Of a stretch of 64,000 nt of DNA, positions 13,151 to 63,240 are shown one piece after another (within the stretch, counting starts at the first letter, position 1; each line of letters begins with the position of its first letter). The DNA comes from an uncultured Desulfofustis sp. (lineage in GTDB: Bacteria > Desulfobacterota > Desulfobulbia > Desulfobulbales > Desulfocapsaceae), in contig CAYSSK010000004.1 of NCBI GenBank assembly GCA_964433645.1, positions 2,989 through 66,988 of the forward strand. Reading direction: 5' to 3'. A program made the translations under genes and the position numbers. The notes under the pieces were generated by a model that made no database searches, had not been told where the DNA came from, and saw nothing but the letters and a program-made list of their open reading frames with translations.

Positions 13151-14450
13151 TCTATGATCTGACGAATGTTCCACGAACAGGGTAGCCACAGTTAGTGCCC
13201 GATATACCGAATTTATTCCGCTTTTATCCTGTCAGCCAGCTTCTTCCTGCTGCCTACACGGCCGCCATGGCGGGGCAGAGCGCTTGGCGGGGTAATCGCC
13301 AGCGCTGAGAATAACCGGGCCAGGCGCGGTCGTGGTTGCGGTATGCTGAGCATGCCGCCGGGCCGGCTGCCGTTGATTTCATGCTCCAACGCGCACAAGG
13401 TCGACAGCTTTTTCAGGCCTTCCTCGACCGTCATATCCAGATCCCGCCAGGCCTTGGCCAGTTTCCGTCGGACCAGATATGCCAGCATGACCACAAAGAC
13501 CTGACCTCTGGTGCGCGACTCCTTGCGCACATAGATTGGCCGAACCTCCAGGTGGCCGGTCTTGCAGGTCCTAAACGCCTGTTCAACCTGGATCAGATCT
13601 TTGTAACGATCATGGACAATTTCCATCGGGGCGTGTTTGGCAGGCAGGTCGGTTTTCAAGACATACCAACCATCCAGTTCCTGCACCTCCGTCAGATATG
13701 CCTCGTCGATCTGCACGGCGATCGAGCGATTCTTGCAGGTTGTTTTCAGGAAGTCGCCTACCTTCAGCTTGCCTTGCCGTTCCCACACCTTGCGGATGGC
13801 GGTGAACTCGTCAGCCCGGGGGTGCTCGGCCAGATAACGGTTCTGCTGCTCGCAGAGCCAGTCCAGGGCCTGGTACAGCTCATCTTCGGTAAACGGATCA
13901 ACGCCGAGCAGTTCGCATACCGCGTGTTCATCTGCCAAGCGCACGGCACTCAGGCGTGAGCCCTGTTCAATCAGCCGGGCCATGACCATCCACAGGCAGA
14001 GCAGGCCGTGTCGCGACGAGCCGATAATTTTATCAAGTCCGAGGTCCCGGCAAACGTGCAACAAGACCCACACGGCGCCGACCGAGCGGCCCTGTGTTTG
14101 CTTGGCACTGCCGCCCAGCAGGTGTTCAAGTTCGCCCGGGCTGTTTTTGTGTTTCAGGGCAAGCTCGATGGTCTTGATCACCGCTTCGGGATATTTGGTC
14201 AGGTTGAGCAGGGTTCGCTTCTTGACCTTGGAGCCATTTTCTCCGCGCTCGCGGTATGATTCGCGGAGCAGGATCTGGGTGTAGACTTTGTGCCACCTTG
14301 TCTGGATTTTTGTCGCTTGATGCACGAAATGGCCACTTAATACCATATAGGTATATCTATGACAATATAATAGATGCACTTTAATGGCTACGATGTTGTC
14401 CCGAAAAATATCGCTTTTTGAGCGATAATCAGGCACTTGCAATAATTCCA
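13151..14450 (-). mobile_element. Degenerate IS1634-family element
   Basis: It contains the transposase ORF below. One terminus (about 13151-13388) is repeated in inverted orientation at 18869-19105. The other terminus is not defined; the 14450 limit is a guess from the composition change. Confidence 0.55.
13213..14346 (-). CDS. IS1634-family transposase, internally deleted (no recognisable DDE core)
   Basis: The N-terminal YTQILLRESYRERGENGSKVKKRTLLNLTK and the C-terminal WYVLKTDL...IVHDRYKDLIQVEQAFRTCKTGHLEVRPIYV are IS1634 hallmarks. The ORF has about 377 aa, against the 500+ aa I recall for this family. The region that should carry the first two acidic catalytic residues is absent. Confidence 0.65.
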   Translation of the reverse strand: MVLSGHFVHQATKIQTRWHKVYTQILLRESYRERGENGSKVKKRTLLNLTKYPEAVIKTIELALKHKNSPGELEHLLGGSAKQTQGRSVGAVWVLLHVCRDLGLDKIIGSSRHGLLCLWMVMARLIEQGSRLSAVRLADEHAVCELLGVDPFTEDELYQALDWLCEQQNRYLAEHPRADEFTAIRKVWERQGKLKVGDFLKTTCKNRSIAVQIDEAYLTEVQELDGWYVLKTDLPAKHAPMEIVHDRYKDLIQVEQAFRTCKTGHLEVRPIYVRKESRTRGQVFVVMLAYLVRRKLAKAWRDLDMTVEEGLKKLSTLCALEHEINGSRPGGMLSIPQPRPRLARLFSALAITPPSALPRHGGRVGSRKKLADRIKAE

Positions 14451-22968: not shown

Positions 22969-23102
22969 GATTAAAAAAATATTTTTCGAAACTCTTTATG
23001 AGTAGCTGTGCTGCGGTAAGTTGCAATCGCGTTTTTGTTTTGGACTCAATTGATTACCACGGGATATATCATTTTATCCTTCAGGTTTCGAGAGATATTT
23101 CA

Positions 23103-23285
23103 GTTGCCGAGATACTTGGCCTGTTCCCTGGGGGGCACGTGGGTGCGGTGTTCTTTCCAGTCGGCGTTTTTGATGGCCAGGTAGCTGTTGTAGATTTGTT
23201 TGCCGAGAATCTCCGGCAGAATCTTGCTGCGCTCCGCTTCCACGAGTGTTTCAAACGTCGATTTGGGCAGGAGCCGCTGGTCCCA
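23103..23285 (-). pseudogene. Glutamine-synthetase-family 3' end remnant
   Basis: The ~60-aa frame LLPKSTFETLVEAERSKILPEILGKQIYNSYLAIKNADWKEHRTHVPPREQAKYLGN* follows the GS C-terminal pattern LP.sl.eAl..l.......LG..i...y...K..EW..y...V...E...YL. Upstream homology is replaced by transposase sequence. Confidence 0.5.
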
Positions 23286-23287
23286 GA

Positions 23288-23705
23288 TGCGATGAGCTGA
23301 ATGCGAGCCAACACGTTGAGGTTGTAGGCAACAATCGTACTCCACAGGTATGCCTTGAAGCCTGCCCAGCCCGACCAGTTACAGCGTTTCATCCCATAAC
23401 TTCGTTTCAGTGTCGAAAAGTTTGCCTCGATCCCGGCCCGAAAATTCCGCAGCCGCCGATACACCCAGGTGCTCTTGGCCATTTCCACGATCGACAGACC
23501 GCGTTGCTTGGCAAAGACCACGTCCTTGACGTGTGCTGCCTTGGCTCCCGCCAGGTTCGCCTTCGAAGCAAAGCCGCCATCCGCCGTGCTCTGCCGGGGC
23601 GGACGACCGTATTGCTCGATATGCCGCTCCAACAACGGCAGAAACAGGTCGGTGTCGGCCGGGTTGCCACACTCAACCAGACAATCAAGAATAGGGCAAC
23701 CGCTA
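23288..23705 (-). pseudogene. Truncated DDE transposase (IS4/IS5-superfamily, ISNCY-like), C-terminal portion only
   Basis: The frame reads ...CGNPADTDLFLPLLERHIEQYGRPPRQSTADGGFASKANL...RNFRAGIEANFSTLKRSYGMKRCNWSGWAGFKAYLWSTIVAYNLNVLARIQL. There is no start codon or N-terminal half, and the frame runs on into the GS remnant without a proper stop. Confidence 0.6.
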
Positions 23706-43569: not shown

Positions 43570-44484
43570 ATGCCACAGGCTCCACCCCTGCCTGACGACC
43601 AGAACCGGTGGTCGGCTCTGCTGCGGGACGAAACATGGTGCACCCACTATCTCTTCCTGCTTCGCTGGCCGCAGGATTTCATCTGTCCCGCCTGCGGCCG
43701 CAGCGGCGGCCGCAGGCCGCCGGCAACACGGATTACCTGCCGGAATTGCGGCAAAACCACATCAATTACCACCGGCACCCTGTTGCACGGCACCAAGAAG
43801 CCGCTTTCCTTCTGGCTCCAGGCCTTCTGGTGGCTCAGCTCGCTGCCGCAGCAGCTGACCGGTAAGACGCTGCAGCGACATATGGGCCTGAAGAGCTACC
43901 AAACGGCCTGGAGCTGGCTGAAGACCCTGAGGCGAGCGATGAAGAATGCAGACCGACAGCGGTGTTCGGGGACGATCGAACTGGACTGCGGCTTTGTCGA
44001 TTTCGGCAGTGACGAAGCACACGGGCGCTACCTGCTGGCCGCAATCGAGGTGGAGCCGAAACACCGGCTGCCCGGCCGACTCCACTTGGCCCACTGCGCG
44101 ATCCCGACAGAATCGCTGCTTGTCGCGTTCATTGAAAACACCACCGATCCCGGCAGCACCATCCTGGCCCCCGACCGGCGGCTCTTTTGTTTACAGAACC
44201 GGCCGGATCGTCTCTATCTCGTCGAAACCGGCTGCAACGACCAGGAACGTGCCCGAGAAGCGATCAACCGCTGTTGCACGGGCTTTCGTGAGCAGCAGGG
44301 TCCGAAGTGTTCGCCGGCCCGTCTCCAGGAACATCTCGACGAGTTCTGCTTCAGAAATAACAGCGCTCTGCTGGCCGACCGACGCCTGATATTCGACCGC
44401 CTCATCGAGGCCATGCTGCTGCACAATGGCCGCAACCGCCGACCGAGAATCGGCGAGCCGCACCCTGCCGGAGGTCTGCCATGA
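43570..44484 (+). CDS. IS1595-family transposase-like protein (zinc-ribbon + ISXO2-like domain), divergent
   Basis: The N-terminus reads CTHYLFLLRWPQDFICPACG...CRNCGKTTSITTGTLLHGTKKPLSFWLQAFWWL...YQTAWSWLKTLRRAM. The tail reads RLQEHLDEFCFRNN. These follow the IS1595 transposase pattern (YL...RWP.gf.CP.CG / GT.f..tk.PL..W / LQ.YLdEF.FR.N). The stop overlaps the ftsH start. Confidence 0.6.
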   Translation: MPQAPPLPDDQNRWSALLRDETWCTHYLFLLRWPQDFICPACGRSGGRRPPATRITCRNCGKTTSITTGTLLHGTKKPLSFWLQAFWWLSSLPQQLTGKTLQRHMGLKSYQTAWSWLKTLRRAMKNADRQRCSGTIELDCGFVDFGSDEAHGRYLLAAIEVEPKHRLPGRLHLAHCAIPTESLLVAFIENTTDPGSTILAPDRRLFCLQNRPDRLYLVETGCNDQERAREAINRCCTGFREQQGPKCSPARLQEHLDEFCFRNNSALLADRRLIFDRLIEAMLLHNGRNRRPRIGEPHPAGGLP

Positions 44485-46298
44485 ATATTCCGGTACGCGT
44501 TCTGCTGGCTCTGATCCTGACAGCTATTCTTATTTTTATCGGTTTCAATATCTATCATATCAGCACCCGCCTGCCGGAACGCTCCTACAGCGCCTTTCTC
44601 GACGACCTGGAACGGGGTGAAATCAACGAAGTAACCATCAAGGACGGGGTGATCACCGGCACCGATCGGCAGCAACGTCAATTCACCACCTATTCGCCCG
44701 ATATCTCCTCGCTGATGCCCCTGCTGCGCCGACACCAGGTGGACATAACCACTAAAGCGGCATCCCGGGGCAGCGCCTTCATCAGGGAGCTGTTGCTGGT
44801 GCTGCTCATTCTCGGCGGTTGGATGATTCTGAGCCGCAAGCGAAACAACCAGTCATTGCAGTTTGCCCGCAACAAAACCTACCAGCGGAATCTCAGCAAC
44901 CCGACTCGGGTCTCGTTCGATGATGTGGCCGGGATCTCCGAGGCCCGGGAGGAACTCAAAGAGATCACCGCTTTTCTCAAAGAGCCGGAAAAATTCGGCG
45001 CCCTTGGCGGCCGTATCCCGAAGGGCGTGCTGCTCCAGGGGCCGCCGGGAACCGGCAAGACGTTGTTGGCCAAAGCCATTGCCGGCGAGGCCTCGGTACC
45101 CTTTTATTCCCTCGGCGGTTCCGATTTCGTCGAAATGTTCGCCGGGCTCGGCGCCTCCCGGGTTCGCGATCTGTTCGCCGAAGCCAAAAAGAATGCCCCG
45201 TGCATCATTTTCATCGACGAAATCGACGCCATCGGCGGCAGGCGAGCCGGCCAATCCCGGGGCGGGTCCAACGACGAACGGGAGCAGACCTTAAACGCGC
45301 TGCTCGTCGAGATGGACGGCTTCACCTCCCATGAGACGGTGATCGTCGTCGCCGCCACCAACCGTCCCGATATTCTCGATTCGGCCCTGCTCCGGCCGGG
45401 GCGATTCGATCGACGCATCACTCTGACCCTGCCCGACATCCGGGGACGAGAAAAGATCCTCGCGGTTCACAGCCGCAAGGTCGCCGTCGGCGGCACTGTC
45501 GATTTTGCCGCGGTGGCCAAGGGAACACCGGGTTTCAGCGGGGCGGAAATCGCCAATCTGGTCAACGAGGCGGCTCTGCTTGCCGCGCGCAAGGGAAAGT
45601 CGCTGATCGACCTGAGCGATTTCGAAGAGGCCAAGGACAAGATCATCATGGGGCTGGAGCGGAAGAGCGCTGTGATCAGCGAAAAGGCCCGGCGACTCAC
45701 GGCCTATCATGAAGCCGGTCACGCGGTCCTTGCCGCCCTGCTACCAGAGACCGATCCGTTGCACAAAATCACCATTATCCCGCGCGGCCAGGCACTTGGC
45801 CTGACCCAGCAACTGCCGTTCGACGAGCACCTCACCTATTCCCGGGAATACCTGATCAACAAGATCAAGATCCTGCTCGGCGGCCGGCTGGCAGAAGAGA
45901 TCATTTTCGGCACCCTGACCACCGGCGCGAGCAACGACCTCCAGTCGATCAGCCGGATCGCCTATCGCCTGGTCTGCACCTTCGGCATGAGCAGCCATAT
46001 CGGCCCGCTGGCCTGCAGCGACCTGGCCGACCAGATAACCGGCGACCCGGGCGACATCAACTGGCAGCGTAGCGAGGAGACCCGGCGGGAGATCGATATG
46101 GAAATCAGAAATATCATCCTCTCCTGCTACCAGAGCGCCAAGGAGGTGCTCAACGACAACAGCGATTTCCTGCATATGCTCGCCGAAGCATTGCTGGTCA
46201 ATGAAACACTGGACAGCGAAGAGGTGGACATCATCCACCGCTGCTACCTCAATGAGCATGAGCAACATCACAAGAAATGGGACATCGTGCCCAGCTAG
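44481..46298 (+). CDS. ftsH: ATP-dependent zinc metalloprotease FtsH
   Basis: 605 aa with two N-terminal TM segments, Walker A GPPGTGKT, Walker [10 protein letters not shown], the [23 protein letters not shown], and the zinc motif HEAGH. Confidence 0.95.
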
Positions 46299-46311
46299 CG
46301 AGGAGTCTGCC

Positions 46312-46773
46312 ATGAATATCCGTCACCAGCCTGTTTCCCGGGGTATGCTCCCGCTGCTCGGCCTGGTCTTTGTTCTGACCACCGCCGGCAGGAGCAGTGC
46401 CGCAGAGCCACCCGACTATCTGGATATCGACGTGCTCAGCGACCGTTACGAAGAGGTGGCCTTCGACCATGAACTGCATGCCGACTACGCGGCATGCAGC
46501 GAATGCCATCATCACACCACCGGCCAAGCCCCGTCCGACCCGGTCTGCGCGACCTGTCACCAGGCCGGTGAAGAAGCTGAGACGGTATCATGCGCAACCT
46601 GCCATCCGGCACAACCGTTTTCCGAAGAGCTGATCGAGCAGAAAGCGCATTCCACCCGCTATCACCTCGACATCGTCGGGCTGCAGGGGGCCTACCATCT
46701 GAACTGCCTCACCTGCCACGAAGCGATCGGCGGCCCGACCGGCTGCCTTGATTGTCATCAAAGTAAACCGTGA
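46312..46773 (+). CDS. Periplasmic multihaem cytochrome c (c3-family-like, five CXXCH)
   Basis: Start at MNIRHQ, followed by a signal peptide. The c3-like FDHELH motif is present. Haem motifs are CSECH, CATCH, CATCH, CLTCH and CLDCH. Confidence 0.85.
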   Translation: MNIRHQPVSRGMLPLLGLVFVLTTAGRSSAAEPPDYLDIDVLSDRYEEVAFDHELHADYAACSECHHHTTGQAPSDPVCATCHQAGEEAETVSCATCHPAQPFSEELIEQKAHSTRYHLDIVGLQGAYHLNCLTCHEAIGGPTGCLDCHQSKP

Positions 46774-46793
46774 ACCTGGGGGAGGAACCTGTC

Positions 46794-47744
46794 ATGAACG
46801 GTCCGTTGTCCCGTCGAAACTTTCTGAGAACCGGCCTAGCCGCGTTTTCTGCAACGCTGCTCACTACTCGCGCCGACAAGGCCGCCGCCCGCGAATTCGA
46901 AGGTTATCGGGAGAGCAAGGGGGTCCTGGTCGATTTGACCAGGTGCATCGGCTGCCGCAGTTGCGAAGCGGCCTGCAACAAAGAACAGGGATTGCCGCCG
47001 CCGGAAACCGGCTTTGACGATCCAGCCGTTTTTCAACTGGACCAGCACGGCCAGCCGCGGCGCCCGGACGATCGGGCCTATACCGTGGTCAACCGCTACC
47101 AAACGGAGCTGGCCGACCATCCGCTGTTTCGCAAGATCCAGTGCAATCACTGTCTGGAACCGGCCTGTCTGACCGCCTGTTTCGTCAACGCCTATACCAA
47201 GACACCGGAAGGCGCCGTGATCTACGATGCCGATGTCTGCGTCGGCTGCCGCACCTGTATGATCGCCTGTCCGTTTTCGATCCCGGCCTTCGACTATTCG
47301 AGCCCTTTCGAGCCGCGCATCATGAAGTGCATCTTCTGTTACGACACCCGCCTGGTCAACGGTCAGCCGCCGGCCTGCGTCGAGGCCTGCCCGACCGAGG
47401 CACTGACCTTTGGCGAACGGGAAACACTGGTGCGCATCGGGCGCAAACGGATCCGCGAACGTCCCGGCCGCTATGTCGATCATATCTACGGCGAGCACGA
47501 GGCGGGCGGCACCGCCTGGCTCTACCTGTCGGGGGTGCCGCACCGCGAAGTCGGTTTCGACATGGACGTGCCGAAACAGCCGATTCTCACCTACGTCAAG
47601 GATTTTCTGGCCATCGTGCCGATGGTGTTGACCATCTGGCCGGCACTGTTTGCCGGCTTTTATCTGCTGGCCGGCCGCGGACACAAAACGATCGATGAAC
47701 CCCACGCAGCCCAGGAGGACAGTCATGAAAGCACTGGTCAATGA
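46794..47744 (+). CDS. Tat-exported 4Fe-4S ferredoxin-type subunit (HybA/DmsB/NrfC-like) with C-terminal anchor
   Basis: Twin-arginine signal SRRNFLRTGLAAF. Cluster motifs are CIGCRSCEAAC, CNHCLEPACLTAC, CVGCRTCMIACP and CIFCYD...PACVEACP. ATG 46794 has GGGGGAGGA upstream. Confidence 0.85.
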   Translation: MNGPLSRRNFLRTGLAAFSATLLTTRADKAAAREFEGYRESKGVLVDLTRCIGCRSCEAACNKEQGLPPPETGFDDPAVFQLDQHGQPRRPDDRAYTVVNRYQTELADHPLFRKIQCNHCLEPACLTACFVNAYTKTPEGAVIYDADVCVGCRTCMIACPFSIPAFDYSSPFEPRIMKCIFCYDTRLVNGQPPACVEACPTEALTFGERETLVRIGRKRIRERPGRYVDHIYGEHEAGGTAWLYLSGVPHREVGFDMDVPKQPILTYVKDFLAIVPMVLTIWPALFAGFYLLAGRGHKTIDEPHAAQEDSHESTGQ

Positions 47745-48975
47745 GGCGCCCGGCCTGCCGATCGACCGCAGCCGCAAAGATCACGCATCATCTTGGAATT
47801 TCAAAGAAAAGATATTGCTCGGGCTGTCGGTCCGCGATTATCTGGCCCAGATGGTGCGCAATCCTGTCAACTGGGTCCTGGTCGCCATCCTGTTGCTCGG
47901 CATCCCGCTGCTCGGTCAGCGCTACCTGTTCGGCCTGGCCAGCGTCACCCACGGTTCGCAGGATTATCCCTGGGGGCTGCTCCTCGGTTTCGGCCTGTTC
48001 GCCATGGTACCGCTGTCGGCGTCCGGGTTTTTGCTGAGCACCGCCGTGGAAATCTTCCACCGTAAGGACTTCCTGCCGATCGAACGGCTGGCCCTGCTCA
48101 ACGGCCTGCTCGGCTACTTCTTCGCCGTCGTCTACCTGCTCGTCGATCTCGGGATGCCGTGGCGGCTGACTTACCCGATGATCGTCTCCTTCGGCCCGGC
48201 CGCCGTGCTCTTCCTCGTCGCTTGGCACGTGGCCACCTATCTCTCCGTCCAGATCGCCGAAATGGTGCCGGCCTTTGCCGAATGGGCCGACTGGCCGGCG
48301 GCCAAACGCTGGATCAAGAGCATCGCCCTGGGGCTGACCATCGCCGGCATCATCCTGTCCACGCTGCACCAAGGTGCGCTCGGGGCGCTGTTCTGCTACG
48401 CCCCGGCAAAAATTCACCCGCTCTGGATCTCGCCCGAATTCCAATGGCTGCATTTTTTCTGCTCGTCCATCTTCGCCGGGCTCTGCATGGTCATCATCGT
48501 CTCGACCCTGCTCAAACATTTCATGACCTGGCGCTGTGACGCCCGCTTTCTCGAGAACCTCGACCGGATCACCATCGGCCTGGCCAAAGGCTCCGCCTAT
48601 GCAATGATCACCTATCTGGTGATCAAACTTGTCGCGATTGCCCACGACCAGGAATGGCAATACCTGATCACCGGCTGGGGAGTCTACTATCTCCTTGAGT
48701 TGGGAATCGGCGTTGTGCTGCCGATGGTGCTGTTCGCCCGCGGCGTCCGCAACCACAATGTGGCGATCCTGCGTTTCGGAGCGGCCATTGCCGTTCTCGG
48801 CATCATCTGGAACCGGCTCAACACCGTTCTGGTCGCCTACAACTGGCGCCAGTACCAGGAACTGCCGACCTGGCAGGAAACCTGGATCGTCTTCACCGTG
48901 CTGGCCTTCTATTTCATCATCTATCGCTTCATCCTCTATCGGTTGCCGGTCGTCTTCAGCTGGAAACAGGTCTGA
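47725..48975 (+). CDS. NrfD/PsrC-family quinone-interacting integral membrane subunit
   Basis: About 416 aa with about 10 TM segments. Its position directly after the FeS subunit (short overlap) is typical of NrfCD/HmcBC/Cbc-type modules. Confidence 0.8.
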   Translation: MKALVNEAPGLPIDRSRKDHASSWNFKEKILLGLSVRDYLAQMVRNPVNWVLVAILLLGIPLLGQRYLFGLASVTHGSQDYPWGLLLGFGLFAMVPLSASGFLLSTAVEIFHRKDFLPIERLALLNGLLGYFFAVVYLLVDLGMPWRLTYPMIVSFGPAAVLFLVAWHVATYLSVQIAEMVPAFAEWADWPAAKRWIKSIALGLTIAGIILSTLHQGALGALFCYAPAKIHPLWISPEFQWLHFFCSSIFAGLCMVIIVSTLLKHFMTWRCDARFLENLDRITIGLAKGSAYAMITYLVIKLVAIAHDQEWQYLITGWGVYYLLELGIGVVLPMVLFARGVRNHNVAILRFGAAIAVLGIIWNRLNTVLVAYNWRQYQELPTWQETWIVFTVLAFYFIIYRFILYRLPVVFSWKQV

Positions 48976-59437: not shown

Positions 59438-60178
59438 CTACCTCACGCCCGCATCTTCCCCACGGGTAAAGGGCACAAAACGTACCGGCAGCATATTTCT
59501 CGTGGTGATCTCCCCCTTTGTTTTCTCCACCAGGACCAGCTGTTGGACACGGAAGCGAGAGCCCACCGGGATGATCATCCGGCCGCCGTCCTTCAGCTGC
59601 TCGATCAAAGGCGGCGGAATGTGCGGCGTGGCGGCGGTTACGATGATGGCATCAAAGGGGGCATGCTCTTCCCAGCCGTAATAGCCATCGGCCTGCTTTA
59701 CCATGACGTTTTCATAGCCGGCCAACGCAAGCCGCTGCTGGGCCCACTTCGCCAGCGGGGCGATAATCTCGATGGTATAGACCGTCTCGACAAGTTCGGC
59801 CAGCACGGCAGCTTGATAACCAGAGCCCGCGCCGATCTCCAGCACCTTGAACGGTGGCTGCGGATCAATGAGCTCGGTCATCAGGGCAACGATATAGGGT
59901 TGGGAAATGGTCTGGCCGTGCCCTATGGGAAGAGGCCGGTCATCATAGGCGAACTCCACCTGGGAATCCGGAACAAACAGATGCCGCTCTGCGCTGCGCA
60001 TCGCCTCGAGTACCGGCGGTGCTTTCACGCCGCGCGCCTCAATCTGCTCGGCGACCATAGCCAGACGCCTTTTCTCCATGATGTCCGTTCCGTCTTGACC
60101 CAGACCTGCCGCCGGAAACCAGCCGCCCCGCAGGCCAAGAAGGGCCAGCAAGAAAAAGAGAAGCCATGTTCTTTTCAT
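59438..60178 (-). CDS. pcm: Protein-L-isoaspartate O-methyltransferase with N-terminal signal peptide
   Basis: PCMT motifs are present: GHGQTISQPYIVALMTE, the SAM site VLEIGAGSGYQAAVLA, and FDAIIVTAA...LKDGGRMIIPVG. The N-terminus MKRTWLLFFLLALLGLRGG looks like a secretion signal. Confidence 0.9.
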   Translation of the reverse strand: MKRTWLLFFLLALLGLRGGWFPAAGLGQDGTDIMEKRRLAMVAEQIEARGVKAPPVLEAMRSAERHLFVPDSQVEFAYDDRPLPIGHGQTISQPYIVALMTELIDPQPPFKVLEIGAGSGYQAAVLAELVETVYTIEIIAPLAKWAQQRLALAGYENVMVKQADGYYGWEEHAPFDAIIVTAATPHIPPPLIEQLKDGGRMIIPVGSRFRVQQLVLVEKTKGEITTRNMLPVRFVPFTRGEDAGVR

Positions 60179-60624
60179 GATGCACATCCTTGATTCGATT
60201 GTTGTTTCTTAGGTGCAAGCCGTCGCCTCGACCGGCAGGAGACGCCCCCCTCCGACCGGCCCGGCAACGCGCACTGGTGGTAAACTGTCCGCCTGTTTCT
60301 TACAGGCTATCTTTCTTTGGCTGATATTTCCAGATCTTTACCGCCGGAAAAGCCGAGGCGGGCAGGCACTTGCTCAAACGGCCCAGAGAAGATGAGCATG
60401 TTTTGCTGCTTTGGTTTGGCCGGCTCTTCGGTGGCACGGTTTATTTTGAAATGCCGGATGGAGCGACTGTTTGACACCGCGTTTGGCACCGCACCTGTCA
60501 CCTTCTCGCCTGCCGGCACCATCGCGAGTCGGCCGTCAGGAAAAACGGTTTCCGCTGACTATTGACACGGGGCTCTTCATTACCAAAGTCTCTCTATGTC
60601 TGTTATCGCAAGGAGGGCACCATT

Positions 60625-61248
60625 ATGGCCATACTCGAAATCTTTTCCGACTATATCTGACCCTGGTGTTATTTCATTACCGGGAGTATTGAAAAACTGA
60701 CTGATACCTACGACATCCAAATTCGCTGGCGAGCCTTTCCGCTCCATCCGGATACCCCGGAGGAGGGGCGCTCCCTGGAAGAGCTTTTTGCCGGCTCAAC
60801 CATCGACGTCGCGCAGATGCTCGCCCATCTCAGCCAGGTGGCCCAATCGCTTGGGCTCCCCCTTGGCACGCGAAAAATGACCTATAACAGCAGAGTGGCC
60901 CAGGAATTGGGGCTGTGGGCGGAAACGAGGGGAAAGGGCCACCGCTTTCACCTGGCGGCGTTCCACGCCTATTTCGCCAAGGGACAAAACCTGGCGAAAA
61001 AGGACGTCCTTCTCGAAATAGCCGCGGCGGCGGGACTCGACCCGGCCGACGCGGAGCAGGTCATTGAAAAACGATCCTTCAGCGCCCGCGTTCTCGCCGA
61101 CTGGCAGCTCTCCAGAGACAAAGGCGTCACCGCCGTTCCCACTTTTATCATGAACGACTCATCCCTGACCGGAGCCCGACCCTACGACGATCTTGTCCGC
61201 TTTGTCGAGTCGGCGGGAGCGGTGTCGGCTTATGATAGAGGGCGATGA
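60625..61248 (+). CDS. DsbA-family (FrnE/2-hydroxychromene-2-carboxylate-isomerase-like) thiol oxidoreductase with in-frame TGA (candidate selenocysteine) at 60658-60660
   Basis: AAGGAGG lies 7 nt upstream of ATG 60625. Translation gives MAILEIFSDYI-TGA-PWCYFITGSIEKL...IRWRAFPLHPDTPEEG..., continuing in frame without further stops into the ORF-track ORF 60817-61248 (...GVTAVPTFIMND...). The TGA occupies the first Cys of the family's CPWC redox motif. Confidence 0.7.
60662..60684 (+). other. Candidate SECIS-like hairpin immediately 3' of the in-frame TGA
   Basis: CCUGGU-(GUUAUUUCAUU)-ACCGGG forms a 6-bp stem (one G.U pair) starting 2 nt after the UGA, and the loop begins with GU. It is a modest structure and I did not evaluate its energy. 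Confidence 0.35.
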
Positions 61249-61284
61249 TCGGCCATCCGCTGGAAAACCCACAAGGAGCTCGAT

Positions 61285-63240
61285 ATGGGTGTCAATCTGA
61301 CCCGCAAGATCATTGAAGCACATCGTGTTGCAGGCAGCCCTCGGCCAGGCGAAGAGATAGCCCTCACAATAGATCATACCCTGTTGCAGGACGCCACCGG
61401 CACCATGGCGATGCTCGAATTCGAGTCGTTGGGGCTGGACCGGGTCCGGGTCGCTCTCGCCGCCCAGTATGTCGACCACAACCTGTTACAGACCGATTTC
61501 AGAAATGCCGATGATCACCGTTACCTGCAAAGCGCCTGCGCTCGTTACGGTGTGCATTACAGCATGCCGGGCAACGGCATCTCCCATCAGGTCCATCTGG
61601 AGAATTTCGGCAAACCCGGATTCACCCTGATCGGCGCCGACAGCCATACCCCGGCGGCGGCCGGTCTCTCCATGCTCGCCTTCGGCGCCGGCGGGCTCGA
61701 TGTCGCGCTGGCCATGGCGGGGCGTCCGTATTACCTGCCCTGTCCGAAGGTGCTGGGAGTAAGGCTCGACGGAAGGCTGCCGCCGTGGGTAAGCGCCAAG
61801 GACATCATCCTCGAGATGCTGCGACGCTATGGGGTCAAGGGATGCCGGGGAATGGTCGTGGAATATTTCGGCCCGGGCGTTGCCACCCTGTCCGTTGAGG
61901 ATCGAGCCGCCATCGGCAATATGGGAACGGAACTCGGGGCGACCAGTTCGATATTTCCTTCCGACGACAATACCCGGAAATATCTTGCCTCCCAGCAGCG
62001 GGAGGCGGACTGGCAGCCCATGGCAGCGGATGACAACGCGGGCTACGATGAATACGACGAGATAGATCTGGCCCGGGCCGAGCCGCTTATCGCCTGCCCG
62101 TCATCGCCCGGCAATGTCGTTGCCGTGAGTGAGGTGGCAGGCACCCGTGTCGACCAGGTCATTGTCGGCTCCAGCGCCAACAGCGGGCTGAAAGATCTGC
62201 TGCGGGTCTCTTCGATCGTCGAGGGCCGCCATAGCGCGCCCCATACCGATCTGCATATCAATCCCGGCAGCCGCCAGGTGCTTGAAAACGTGGTGGAGGC
62301 CGGAGGGCTGATGGCACTGATCAAGACAGGAGCCAAGATCCACCAGTCCGGCTGCCTGGGCTGCATCGGCATGGGCCAGGCCCCGGGTACCGGCCAGGTG
62401 AGTCTCCGCACCTTTCCCAGGAATTTCCCCGGCCGTTCCGGAACAAAGGACGACCAGGTCTACCTCTGCTCACCGGAGACCGCGGCGGCCGCGGCACTGA
62501 AAGGGGTCATAACGGACCCGCGCCTGCTGGCAGACGAGATGGCATACCCCGTGATCGATGATCCGGAGCTGCGGCTGGTGGACAGGTCTTCCATCATTTA
62601 CCCTTCGAGAGAGCTGCAGGCGACCGAAGTCGTACGCGGGCCGAATATCACGCCGTTTCCGGAACTTGCCCCGTTGCCGGAAAGTCTGCGGCTGCGGGTG
62701 GCCCTCAAGGTCGGGGACAATATTACAACGGATGCCATTATGCCGGCCGGTAATACGGTGCTGCCCCTGCGATCGAACATCGAAGCGATCAGCAGGTTTG
62801 TCTTCTATCAGACAGCCCCTGATTTCTACGAGCGTTGCCGTCTCCTTGGTGACGGCGCCGTGATCGGCGGCGAAAATTACGGCCAGGGGTCCAGCCGGGA
62901 ACATGCCGCCCTGGCCCCGCGCTTTCTCGGGATACGCCTCAAGCTGGCAAAAAGCTATGCCCGCATCCACAAGGCTAATCTGTGCAATTTCGGCATACTC
63001 CCGCTGATTTTTAAAAATCCTGCTGATTACGACCGGATAACCGATTCGTCGGTGATCGAAGTACCCGGCATCAGAGCCGGCATTGAACGAGGGGAAAAAG
63101 AGATTGGCATCAGGGTTGACGACCAGGAGATGATTGCCCTGCTGGAGGTTTCCGACCGGCAGCGGCAGAGCCTGCTTGCCGGCGGGACGTTGAATCTGGT
63201 GCGCCGGGAATTGGCGGAAGATCAGCACCTCGCTCCCTGA
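61285..63240 (+). CDS. Aconitate hydratase (aconitase-family, ~650-aa fused catalytic + swivel domain type)
   Basis: DHTLLQDATG, GADSHTPAAAG and the Fe-S ligands in GSSANSG...CLGCIGMGQAP. The C-terminal swivel domain has GENYGQGSSREHAAL. Confidence 0.9.
   Translation: MGVNLTRKIIEAHRVAGSPRPGEEIALTIDHTLLQDATGTMAMLEFESLGLDRVRVALAAQYVDHNLLQTDFRNADDHRYLQSACARYGVHYSMPGNGISHQVHLENFGKPGFTLIGADSHTPAAAGLSMLAFGAGGLDVALAMAGRPYYLPCPKVLGVRLDGRLPPWVSAKDIILEMLRRYGVKGCRGMVVEYFGPGVATLSVEDRAAIGNMGTELGATSSIFPSDDNTRKYLASQQREADWQPMAADDNAGYDEYDEIDLARAEPLIACPSSPGNVVAVSEVAGTRVDQVIVGSSANSGLKDLLRVSSIVEGRHSAPHTDLHINPGSRQVLENVVEAGGLMALIKTGAKIHQSGCLGCIGMGQAPGTGQVSLRTFPRNFPGRSGTKDDQVYLCSPETAAAAALKGVITDPRLLADEMAYPVIDDPELRLVDRSSIIYPSRELQATEVVRGPNITPFPELAPLPESLRLRVALKVGDNITTDAIMPAGNTVLPLRSNIEAISRFVFYQTAPDFYERCRLLGDGAVIGGENYGQGSSREHAALAPRFLGIRLKLAKSYARIHKANLCNFGILPLIFKNPADYDRITDSSVIEVPGIRAGIERGEKEIGIRVDDQEMIALLEVSDRQRQSLLAGGTLNLVRRELAEDQHLAP

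Follow-up and report, generated by a model that had tools for sequence, protein, structure and literature searches.

A predicted selenocysteine-decoded FrnE-like oxidoreductase gene in an uncultured Desulfofustis, with a conserved in-frame TGA and a covarying downstream hairpin

Introduction

Within a 64,000-nucleotide stretch of DNA from an uncultured Desulfofustis sp. (NCBI GenBank assembly GCA_964433645.1, contig CAYSSK010000004.1, positions 2,989 to 66,988 of the forward strand), hereafter the window, positions 60625-61248 can be read as one gene for a predicted FrnE-like oxidoreductase in which an in-frame TGA is decoded as selenocysteine (Sec), a reading to which we give a probability of roughly 0.9. 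It had been put forward in a sequence-only reading, i.e., from the letters of the window and a list of its open reading frames (ORFs), and our follow-up supports it: the UGA falls at the column of the N-terminal catalytic Cys, there is coding constraint on both sides of it in approximately 80 species, and a covarying hairpin fits the rules for a bacterial selenocysteine insertion sequence (SECIS). The gene structure, the protein family and fold, the conservation of the UGA and the covarying hairpin are shown by the comparisons described below.

The reading frame through the TGA

The gene is preceded by a strong ribosome binding site (RBS), AAGGAGG at 60610-60616, placed 8 nt 5' of an ATG at 60625-27. 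From this ATG the frame reads MAILEIFSDYI, meets the TGA at 60658-60660, continues as PWCYFITGSIEKL... and stays open until a second TGA at 61246-48. The full-length product has 207 residues, with Sec at codon 12 and the active-site motif U12-P-W-C15, in which C15 is the sole Cys of the protein. The RBS, the start codon and the eleven-residue opening described in the sequence-only reading are all present, and the stop-free continuation that it gave after the TGA (PWCYFITGSIEK...), running into the ORF at 60817-61248, is borne out. It was also right that ORF calling had missed the gene: both the ORF list and public gene calling give only the 143-codon piece (P0001, 100% identical).

Relatives were scanned using one genome per GTDB species, with motifs taken from the C-terminal half of the protein so that the scan was unbiased toward a TGA, and the best 80 loci of 564 relatives were kept; all counts out of 80 genomes refer to these loci. 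They all come from Desulfobacterota-type organisms, among them Desulfofustis glycolicus DSM 9705 (85% identity), Desulfopila, Desulfocapsaceae, Desulfotignum, Desulfobacula, Desulfospira joergensenii DSM 10085 (L048) and Desulfosarcina alkanivorans. A TGA stands at exactly the U12 codon in 80/80, with FSDY[IV] before it and PWC after it in 77; the three variant loci have U-P-Y-C (L027), DCI (L034) and DTI (L054). An independent Logan assembly of run SRR7048224 (L001) has the identical TGA. The conservation of the TGA lies far beyond chance.

The peptide upstream of the TGA, LEIFSDY[IV], is conserved across the 80 genomes, and most of its codons, including those for Glu, Asp and Tyr, show synonymous usage close to the background of the same genes; selection here therefore acts on the peptide, and the ribosome must read the TGA in frame. 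Homologues keep a TGA at the U12 column, as in the 80 relatives, or a Cys, as in P0012, P0076 and FrnE, and no decay of the upstream codons was found in close orthologues, where the peptide is kept while synonymous sites vary. Stop codons in the window comprise 15 TGA, 11 TAA and 10 TAG among 36 confident ORFs, and TGA also ends the selenoprotein gene itself; TGA is thus the commonest ordinary stop, and the genetic code is therefore standard.

A covarying hairpin downstream of the TGA

As judged from codon usage, the DNA 3' of the TGA is conserved to a degree that the protein alone would not demand (Table 1). Ser at codon +9 is always encoded by AGT, and codons +3, +4 and +13 onward are at background usage.

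Table 1 Codon usage downstream of the TGA, as the share of the commonest codon among 78 genes and the background for that codon
Codon position	Codon and share	Background
+5	TTC 100%	40%
+6	ATT 88%	37%
+7	ACC 94%	44%
+8	GGG 95%	28%
+9	CGT 52/52	11%
+10	ATT 90%	37%
+11	GAA 96%	63%

A hairpin at 60673-60693 comprises 7 pairs plus a U·U, with a 5-nt loop and 20 nt from the UGA to the loop, and RNAalifold recovers its helix on 77 distinct sequences. At the pair 60676-60690, 71 sequences have A-U and 5 have G-C; at 60678-60688, 71 have U-A, 5 have C-G and one has A-U. Double changes occur in 13 cells, none is present in any slid register of the helix, and the observed covariation score was reached by none of 500 shuffles. 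When these changes are placed on a neighbour-joining tree of the remainder of the protein, at least three origins of G-C, at least four of C-G and one of A-U are needed, i.e., at least eight independent double changes. The energy of the hairpin is uniform among orthologues (− 3.4 ± 0.6 kcal/mol). In the variant locus L027 (6094 region; a Desulforhopalus metagenome-assembled genome (MAG)), the U-P-Y-C motif is accompanied by an A·A mismatch at the pair equivalent to 60676-60690.

The bacterial SECIS consensus has a loop of 3-9 nt, a stem of 4-16 bp, a G in the first two loop positions, 16-37 nt between UGA and loop, and a minimum free energy (MFE) of − 7.5 kcal/mol or lower (PMC13188914). The hairpin at 60673-60693 agrees with four of these rules, having a 5-nt loop, 7 pairs, a G at loop position 2 followed by another G, and a spacing of 20 nt. 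A mild context bias was also observed around the UGA in orthologues (60655-60663), where the preceding codon is ATC in 88% of Ile cases, against a background of 43%, and the following codon is CCC in 74%, against 34%; this bias is not accounted for by the SECIS hairpin.

The sequence-only reading had pointed to another hairpin, lying directly after the TGA at 60662-60684. This hairpin is real as the MFE fold of the single sequence (− 10.2 kcal/mol), but it is not the preserved element, which lies 11 bases downstream at 60673-60693. Within a context of 66 nt its z-score is − 0.1, and shorter contexts give − 1.7 to − 2.3; alone it is not significant. It is decidedly unlikely that the gene is a selenoprotein gene with this hairpin, which begins 2 nt after the UGA, as its SECIS. 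The hairpin pairs in 96% of cells across 77 orthologues, and the CCC enrichment at codon +1 would favour one of its pairs, but it shows no compensatory change at any pair, and its conservation comes free because its 5' arm is set by the Pro-Trp-Cys codons and its 3' arm consists of the 5' arm of the SECIS plus the loop. Moreover, it leaves the frozen TTC, CGT, ATT and GAA codons unexplained, and its energy among orthologues ranges from − 10.3 to + 0.9 kcal/mol. A ribosome that has the UGA in its A site covers some 10-12 nt of the mRNA beyond it; the 5' arm of 60662-84 would therefore sit within the ribosome, where it could not pair, and 60673-93 would lie just outside, which is why we place the SECIS at 60673-60693. 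As a recoding signal, the hairpin at 60662-84 also fails the rules for a G in the loop and for a spacing of 16-37 nt (PMC13188914), and it is most likely incidental.

The two overlapping and mutually exclusive hairpins could also constitute a ribosome-operated switch, an idea that we regard as doubtful. In free mRNA the stabler hairpin at 60662-84 would hide the SECIS loop (CGGG) together with half the SECIS stem, and its 5' arm would be opened only by a ribosome that has reached the UGA, after which 60673-93 could refold for SelB; if this were true, SelB would bind only mRNAs under translation. The SECIS element is nearly invariant in its nucleotides across Desulfobacterales, Desulfobulbales and Syntrophales-type genomes and persists in the Cys and Trp variants described below, which could point to a second role of the RNA beyond recoding.

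Protein family, fold and active site

When translated with Cys for the TGA, the product matches the Pfam family DSBA (PF01323) over residues 4-192 (E = 4e-37, 128 bits against a cut-off of 25.6), and no specific NCBIfam model was reached by the protein. Among solved structures, Deinococcus radiodurans FrnE (5CNW and related entries) is nearest in sequence (E = 5e-16), and its DIA-C-PWCY aligns with DYI-U-PWCY of the window protein, so that the UGA falls at the first active-site Cys. This agrees with two claims of the sequence-only reading, namely that Cys-containing homologues carry D-x-x-C-P-W-C-Y at the place of the TGA, as do P0012 (DYICPWCY), P0076 (DYVCPWCY) and FrnE (DIACPWCY), and that the UGA is aligned with a catalytic redox Cys, U12 standing at the first Cys of C-P-W-C in FrnE and at a Cys in P0012 and P0076.

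The fold was assessed by proxy, using an AlphaFold model of P0012, a natural Cys homologue that is 56% identical to the window protein. This model has a predicted local distance difference test (pLDDT) score of 95.6, with a beta-strand at residues 6-12 and the Sec-equivalent Cys directly before a helix at 17-32. In a Foldseek search of the PDB with the P0012 model, FrnE ranked top with a template modelling (TM) score of 0.89 and a root mean square deviation of 1.9, followed by SCO1869, YjbH, 2-hydroxychromene-2-carboxylate (HCCA) isomerases, DsbM and kappa-class glutathione S-transferases, with the classical DsbAs far behind. The proxy thus shows the FrnE type of fold, in which the thioredoxin core has a helical insertion and helix alpha-1 bears the active site at its N-terminus. 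The window protein lacks a hydrophobic leader, its first beta-strand starting at residue 3-4, although no signal-peptide predictor was run. The missing leader peptide and the single Cys, C15, mark the protein as a predicted FrnE-type oxidoreductase of the cytoplasm, with one U-P-W-C redox pair, and not as a periplasmic DsbA. Ala170 and Pro172, which belong to a loop further along the protein (Table 2), are invariant in one alignment (A1), and in another (A3) Pro172 is invariant and Val171 nearly so.

Annotation errors and natural variants

The protein search returned as its closest matches truncated gene calls, with 143 aa at 81-100% identity and 167-193 aa at approximately 60-74%, and the full-length matches were only 50-59% identical. 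Further public records are N-terminally truncated as well, with varied start codons and lengths of 143-193 aa, and the type strain Desulfofustis glycolicus DSM 9705 has the same truncation (P0009, 'DSBA-like thioredoxin domain-containing protein'). Mis-annotation of the family in public records is systematic.

A rival reading is that the TGA is a true stop, leaving either a decaying pseudogene or an 11-residue stub followed by a headless 143-residue protein from 60817; in its favour, public pipelines annotate the truncated form (P0001, P0009), and no Sec machinery is seen within the window. Nevertheless, we consider this highly improbable. Across 80 genomes, protein-level conservation with synonymous variation extends over the 11 codons that precede the TGA and the 52 that separate it from Met65, and the TGA is invariant rather than drifting. 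Met65 is not a conserved start, as the other truncated calls begin at many places (143 to 193 aa), the strong RBS precedes 60625 and not 60817, and a product without the strand and helix of the CxxC would have no active site.

Other records carry a Trp at the Sec column. Four of the five such entries that were checked have TGA in the DNA (L204-L207; P0084, P0055, P0021, P0032) and are therefore gene-caller artefacts, and many similar records with a Trp that arose from a TGA translated as W were seen in ENA, JGI and NCBI. One MAG has a genuine TGG at the Sec codon (L203:1543-1545; GCA_018819005.1, JAHJQU010000359.1; also L202), together with a change of GGG to GTG in the loop and of Pro to Ser in an FPLHP motif; it may represent a decaying copy or a lineage in which Sec decoding has been lost. 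The many Trp entries and this MAG are the points in favour of a UGA that is read without selenium, either by near-cognate tRNAs for Trp or Cys or because the code has been reassigned and TGA stands for Trp or Gly. There is only a very slight chance of this: besides the TGA found in the DNA of four of the five entries, TGA ends 15 of the 36 confident genes of the window, including this one, a Trp at the catalytic position would abolish redox chemistry, and a covarying hairpin with SECIS geometry would be purposeless under simple read-through.

Cys forms fall into distant and close ones. The distant forms (118 metagenomic sequences) form on average 3.4 of the 7 SECIS pairs, against 6.9 of 7 in the Sec forms; the metagenome pattern scan yielded mostly such distant proteins, of a YLGDNRV type, which have no hairpin but have different amino acids too. 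In the close forms P0012/L208 (L208:304-342) and P0100/L209, the SECIS nucleotides are exact (TGT CCC TGG TGC TAY TTC ATT ACC GGG ...) with 7/7 pairs, and P0061/L210 keeps 5/7. The close forms were dropped as negative controls, since they keep the SECIS. They look like recent TGA-to-TGY conversions with a remnant SECIS, and Sec therefore appears to be ancestral in the clade. That an error in sequencing or assembly turned a TGC or TGT into this TGA has the slimmest chance of all: close Cys forms that differ only by TGA to TGT do exist in metagenomes (L208, L209), but the same TGA is found in the independent Logan assembly (L001) and in every one of the 80 related genomes, which were sequenced in many projects and on many platforms.

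Features and genomic context

The features of the gene are collected in Table 2.

Table 2 Positions in the window of the predicted selenoprotein gene and its associated features
Feature	Position	Strand	Remarks
Full coding sequence, predicted FrnE/DsbA-like selenoprotein	60625..61248	+	207 codons plus stop; PF01323, FrnE match and tblastn matches spanning residues 1-207 in relatives
RBS AAGGAGG	60610..60616	+	Kept as AAGGAGG/ATGGAGG in L002 and L004
Eleven pre-UGA codons, MAILEIFSDYI	60625..60657	+	First beta-strand of the thioredoxin fold; strand 6-12 in the P0012 model; no signal peptide
Predicted UGA selenocysteine codon U12, first position of U-P-W-C	60658..60660	+	TGA in 80/80 relatives; aligns to Cys22 of the FrnE C-P-W-C
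Cys15 codon, presumed resolving residue	60667..60669	+	PWC conserved in 77/80 genomes
Val171-Pro172 of the T-A-V-P-T-F loop, at the position of the thioredoxin-fold cis-proline loop	61135..61140	+	Role by homology
143-codon ORF of the public annotation, without active site	60817..61248	+	P0001 identical
12-nt spacer from UGA to SECIS hairpin	60661..60672	+	Codons +3 and +4 (TGY, TAY) vary at background rates
Predicted SECIS hairpin	60673..60693	+	Arms UUCAUUAC and GUAUUGAA; U·U at 60677/60689; loop CGGGA at 60681-60685
Hairpin of the sequence-only reading, 7 pairs, 9-nt loop	60662..60684	+	Mutually exclusive with the SECIS hairpin; probably incidental
Possible -35 hexamer TTGACA	60562..60567	+	Weak candidate, in a block of ~100 nt 5' of the ATG conserved in three Desulfofustis genomes

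Upstream lies a divergent pcm gene (protein-L-isoaspartate O-methyltransferase; 59438-60187, minus strand), and downstream, on the same strand, the stop is followed 36 nt later by the start of an aconitate hydratase gene (61285-63240). Gene identity and synteny assign the window to a Desulfofustis-like member of the Desulfocapsaceae. Because the selenoprotein and aconitase genes lie so close on one strand, and because no terminator-like site was found between them, co-transcription with the aconitase gene is plausible. At 61246-61287, the TGA stop of the gene is in frame with the aconitase start, which is probably a coincidence. The conserved upstream block of approximately 100 nt is kept even in L004, in which the upstream neighbour is a different one (tRNA-Cys). 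A sigma-70 scan found no full consensus promoter on the plus strand. At 60535-60567, an imperfect inverted repeat, GTCAGGAAA..TTTCCGCTGAC, stands directly 5' of the perfect TTGACA, with a right arm that is not kept in L004; the repeat and the hexamer could be an operator plus a -35 element. A 71-codon ORF at 60307-60522 on the minus strand was rejected, as it is not conserved.

Elsewhere in the window, positions 1-23700 form a low-GC island (37-53% GC against approximately 60% for 24-64 kb) rich in glycan and envelope genes, including hexapeptide acyltransferases, a polysaccharide pyruvyl transferase, an NAD epimerase, a GT4 glycosyltransferase, an asparagine synthase, an FrhB-like protein, GtrA and a MacB/HlyD/TolC-like exporter. 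The island, which also has transposase-like ORFs at 13213-14442 and 23081-23635, is probably a polysaccharide locus gained by horizontal transfer. A further ORF with an IS1595-family transposase domain lies at 43570-44484, in the high-GC part of the window. A multihaem c-type cytochrome with weak HmcA/TmcA similarity, a 4Fe-4S dicluster protein and a polytopic membrane protein stand in a row at 46201-48975 and make up an Hmc/Tmc/Qrc-like membrane redox module typical of sulfate reducers.

Discussion

Under the Sec reading of the gene, a ribosome would reach the UGA at 60658-60 with the first ~12 nt downstream held in the mRNA channel, and the 21 nt beyond them (60673-60693) would form a small hairpin whose loop, CGGGA, is rich in G. 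To this hairpin SelB would bind with its Sec-tRNA(Sec) and deliver selenocysteine in place of termination by a release factor, and translation would proceed to the real stop at 61246-48. In the finished protein, Sec12 at the N-terminus of helix alpha-1 would be the attacking nucleophile on substrate disulfides or oxidised thiols, and Cys15 would resolve the mixed selenylsulfide, leaving an intramolecular Se-S bond to be recycled by a cellular reductant. The binding of SelB, the geometry of the ribosome and the chemistry are inferred.

Several observations weigh against the selenoprotein reading. There is no tRNA-Sec, selA, selB or selD in the 64-kb window, as judged by reading its ORFs by eye, scanning them and searching for tRNAs, nor is there a tRNA-Sec in the flanks of 60 related loci. 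The SECIS hairpin is weak, at − 4.2 kcal/mol in isolation and approximately − 3.4 kcal/mol as the mean of the orthologues, compared with the bSECISearch cut-off of − 7.5 kcal/mol, a value that is a search heuristic of the consensus model and not a mechanistic requirement. In naked RNA, the competing hairpin at 60662-84 is more stable (− 10.2 kcal/mol), and no SECIS family in Rfam was matched, whether by the window at gathering thresholds or by 60560-60800 at E up to 10; these searches returned only tRNA-Cys and a chance intron fragment. Finally, the arrangement with pcm and the aconitase gene is common only to Desulfofustis genomes and does not extend beyond the genus, and the neighbourhood therefore gives no clue to substrate or function.

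The sole tRNA in the window is a tRNA-Cys. A mechanical scan of the window for other TGA-interrupted genes gave 176 candidates, all of them overlapping frames in GC-rich DNA, among which no second selenoprotein gene was recognised. Outside the window, heavy use of selenocysteine is on record for relatives with this gene. In the supplement of Peng et al. 2016 (PMC5029168), Desulfospira joergensenii DSM 10085, which has the gene at locus L048, is credited with 36 selenoproteins, two Desulfotignum species with 23, Desulfotalea psychrophila with 16 and Desulfocapsa sulfexigens with 14.

The main value of the result lies in annotation, since the gene stands in databases either as a fragment without an active site or as a full-length protein with a spurious catalytic Trp. 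The signature TGA-CCN-TGG-TGY-TAY-TTC-ATT-ACC-GGG-MGT-ATT-GAA would let pipelines call the gene correctly across Desulfobacterota. In addition, a compact SECIS with covariation behind it and the natural variants in which Cys or Trp has taken the place of Sec while the hairpin is retained offer material for tests of SelB recognition, and the same variants would be useful for comparing a selenylsulfide with a disulfide in an FrnE-type enzyme. The result brings no change to what is known about selenoproteins.

Comparison with known systems

With the periplasmic disulfide oxidase DsbA of Escherichia coli, the window protein has a superfamily and a fold class in common, as well as a CxxC-type motif at the equivalent place. 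It differs in having U-P-W-C and not C-P-H-C and in lacking a signal peptide, and DsbA entries reach a TM score of only approximately 0.55-0.65 against the P0012 model in Foldseek; the protein should not be called a DsbA orthologue.

The likeness to FrnE of Deinococcus radiodurans (PDB 5CNW, 5COH, 5CP1, 5XWH), a cytoplasmic disulfide oxidoreductase, is closer. Both have C/U-P-W-C at the start of helix alpha-1 and a thioredoxin fold with a helical insertion, and neither has a signal peptide. FrnE differs in carrying a Cys where the window protein is predicted to carry Sec, the identity is approximately 32%, and the solved FrnE chains are ~ 50 residues longer (260 vs 207). The extra tail of FrnE carries a second Cys pair, of which a C239S mutant is found in the PDB.

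At the level of RNA, the predicted element resembles the fdhF-type SECIS of E. coli and the bSECISearch consensus in being a hairpin inside the coding region with a small apical loop that has a G at position 2 followed by another G. In the window gene, 20 nt separate the UGA from the loop and a 12-nt spacer separates it from the base of the helix; the minimal element of E. coli fdhF needs ~ 11 nt. The differences are that there is no resemblance in sequence and no Rfam match, that the helix has − 4.2 kcal/mol against − 7.5 kcal/mol or lower in the consensus, and that the bulged U of fdhF has a U·U mismatch as its counterpart in the window hairpin.

The closest system is that of the DsbA-like selenoproteins. 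The sequence-only reading had stated that such proteins were reported before, which is correct (PMC1088965, PMC1794560, PMC5029168, PMC13188914). A DsbA-like protein (COG2761, UxxC) was introduced as a selenoprotein family with nine sequences from the Sargasso Sea in 2005 (PMC1088965) and subsequently turned up in Desulfovibrio desulfuricans, Anaeromyxobacter dehalogenans and Desulfotomaculum reducens (Zhang et al. 2006, PMC1794560). By 2016, it was counted in 41 organisms with 45 genes (PMC5029168), and a 2026 review lists 'DsbA-like protein form 1, PF01323, UxxC' (PMC13188914). The window gene shares with this family (COG2761/FrnE, PF01323) the domain, a UxxC motif with the predicted Sec first, a SECIS directly downstream and an occurrence in deltaproteobacterial or Desulfobacterota anaerobes. 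The definition of the SECIS at 60673-93 by covariation and the remnant SECIS in Cys forms were worked out in the present analysis. There is no essential difference from the family other than that the copy in the window is not annotated as a selenoprotein, and its sequence points to an unannotated member of this already-known selenoprotein family.

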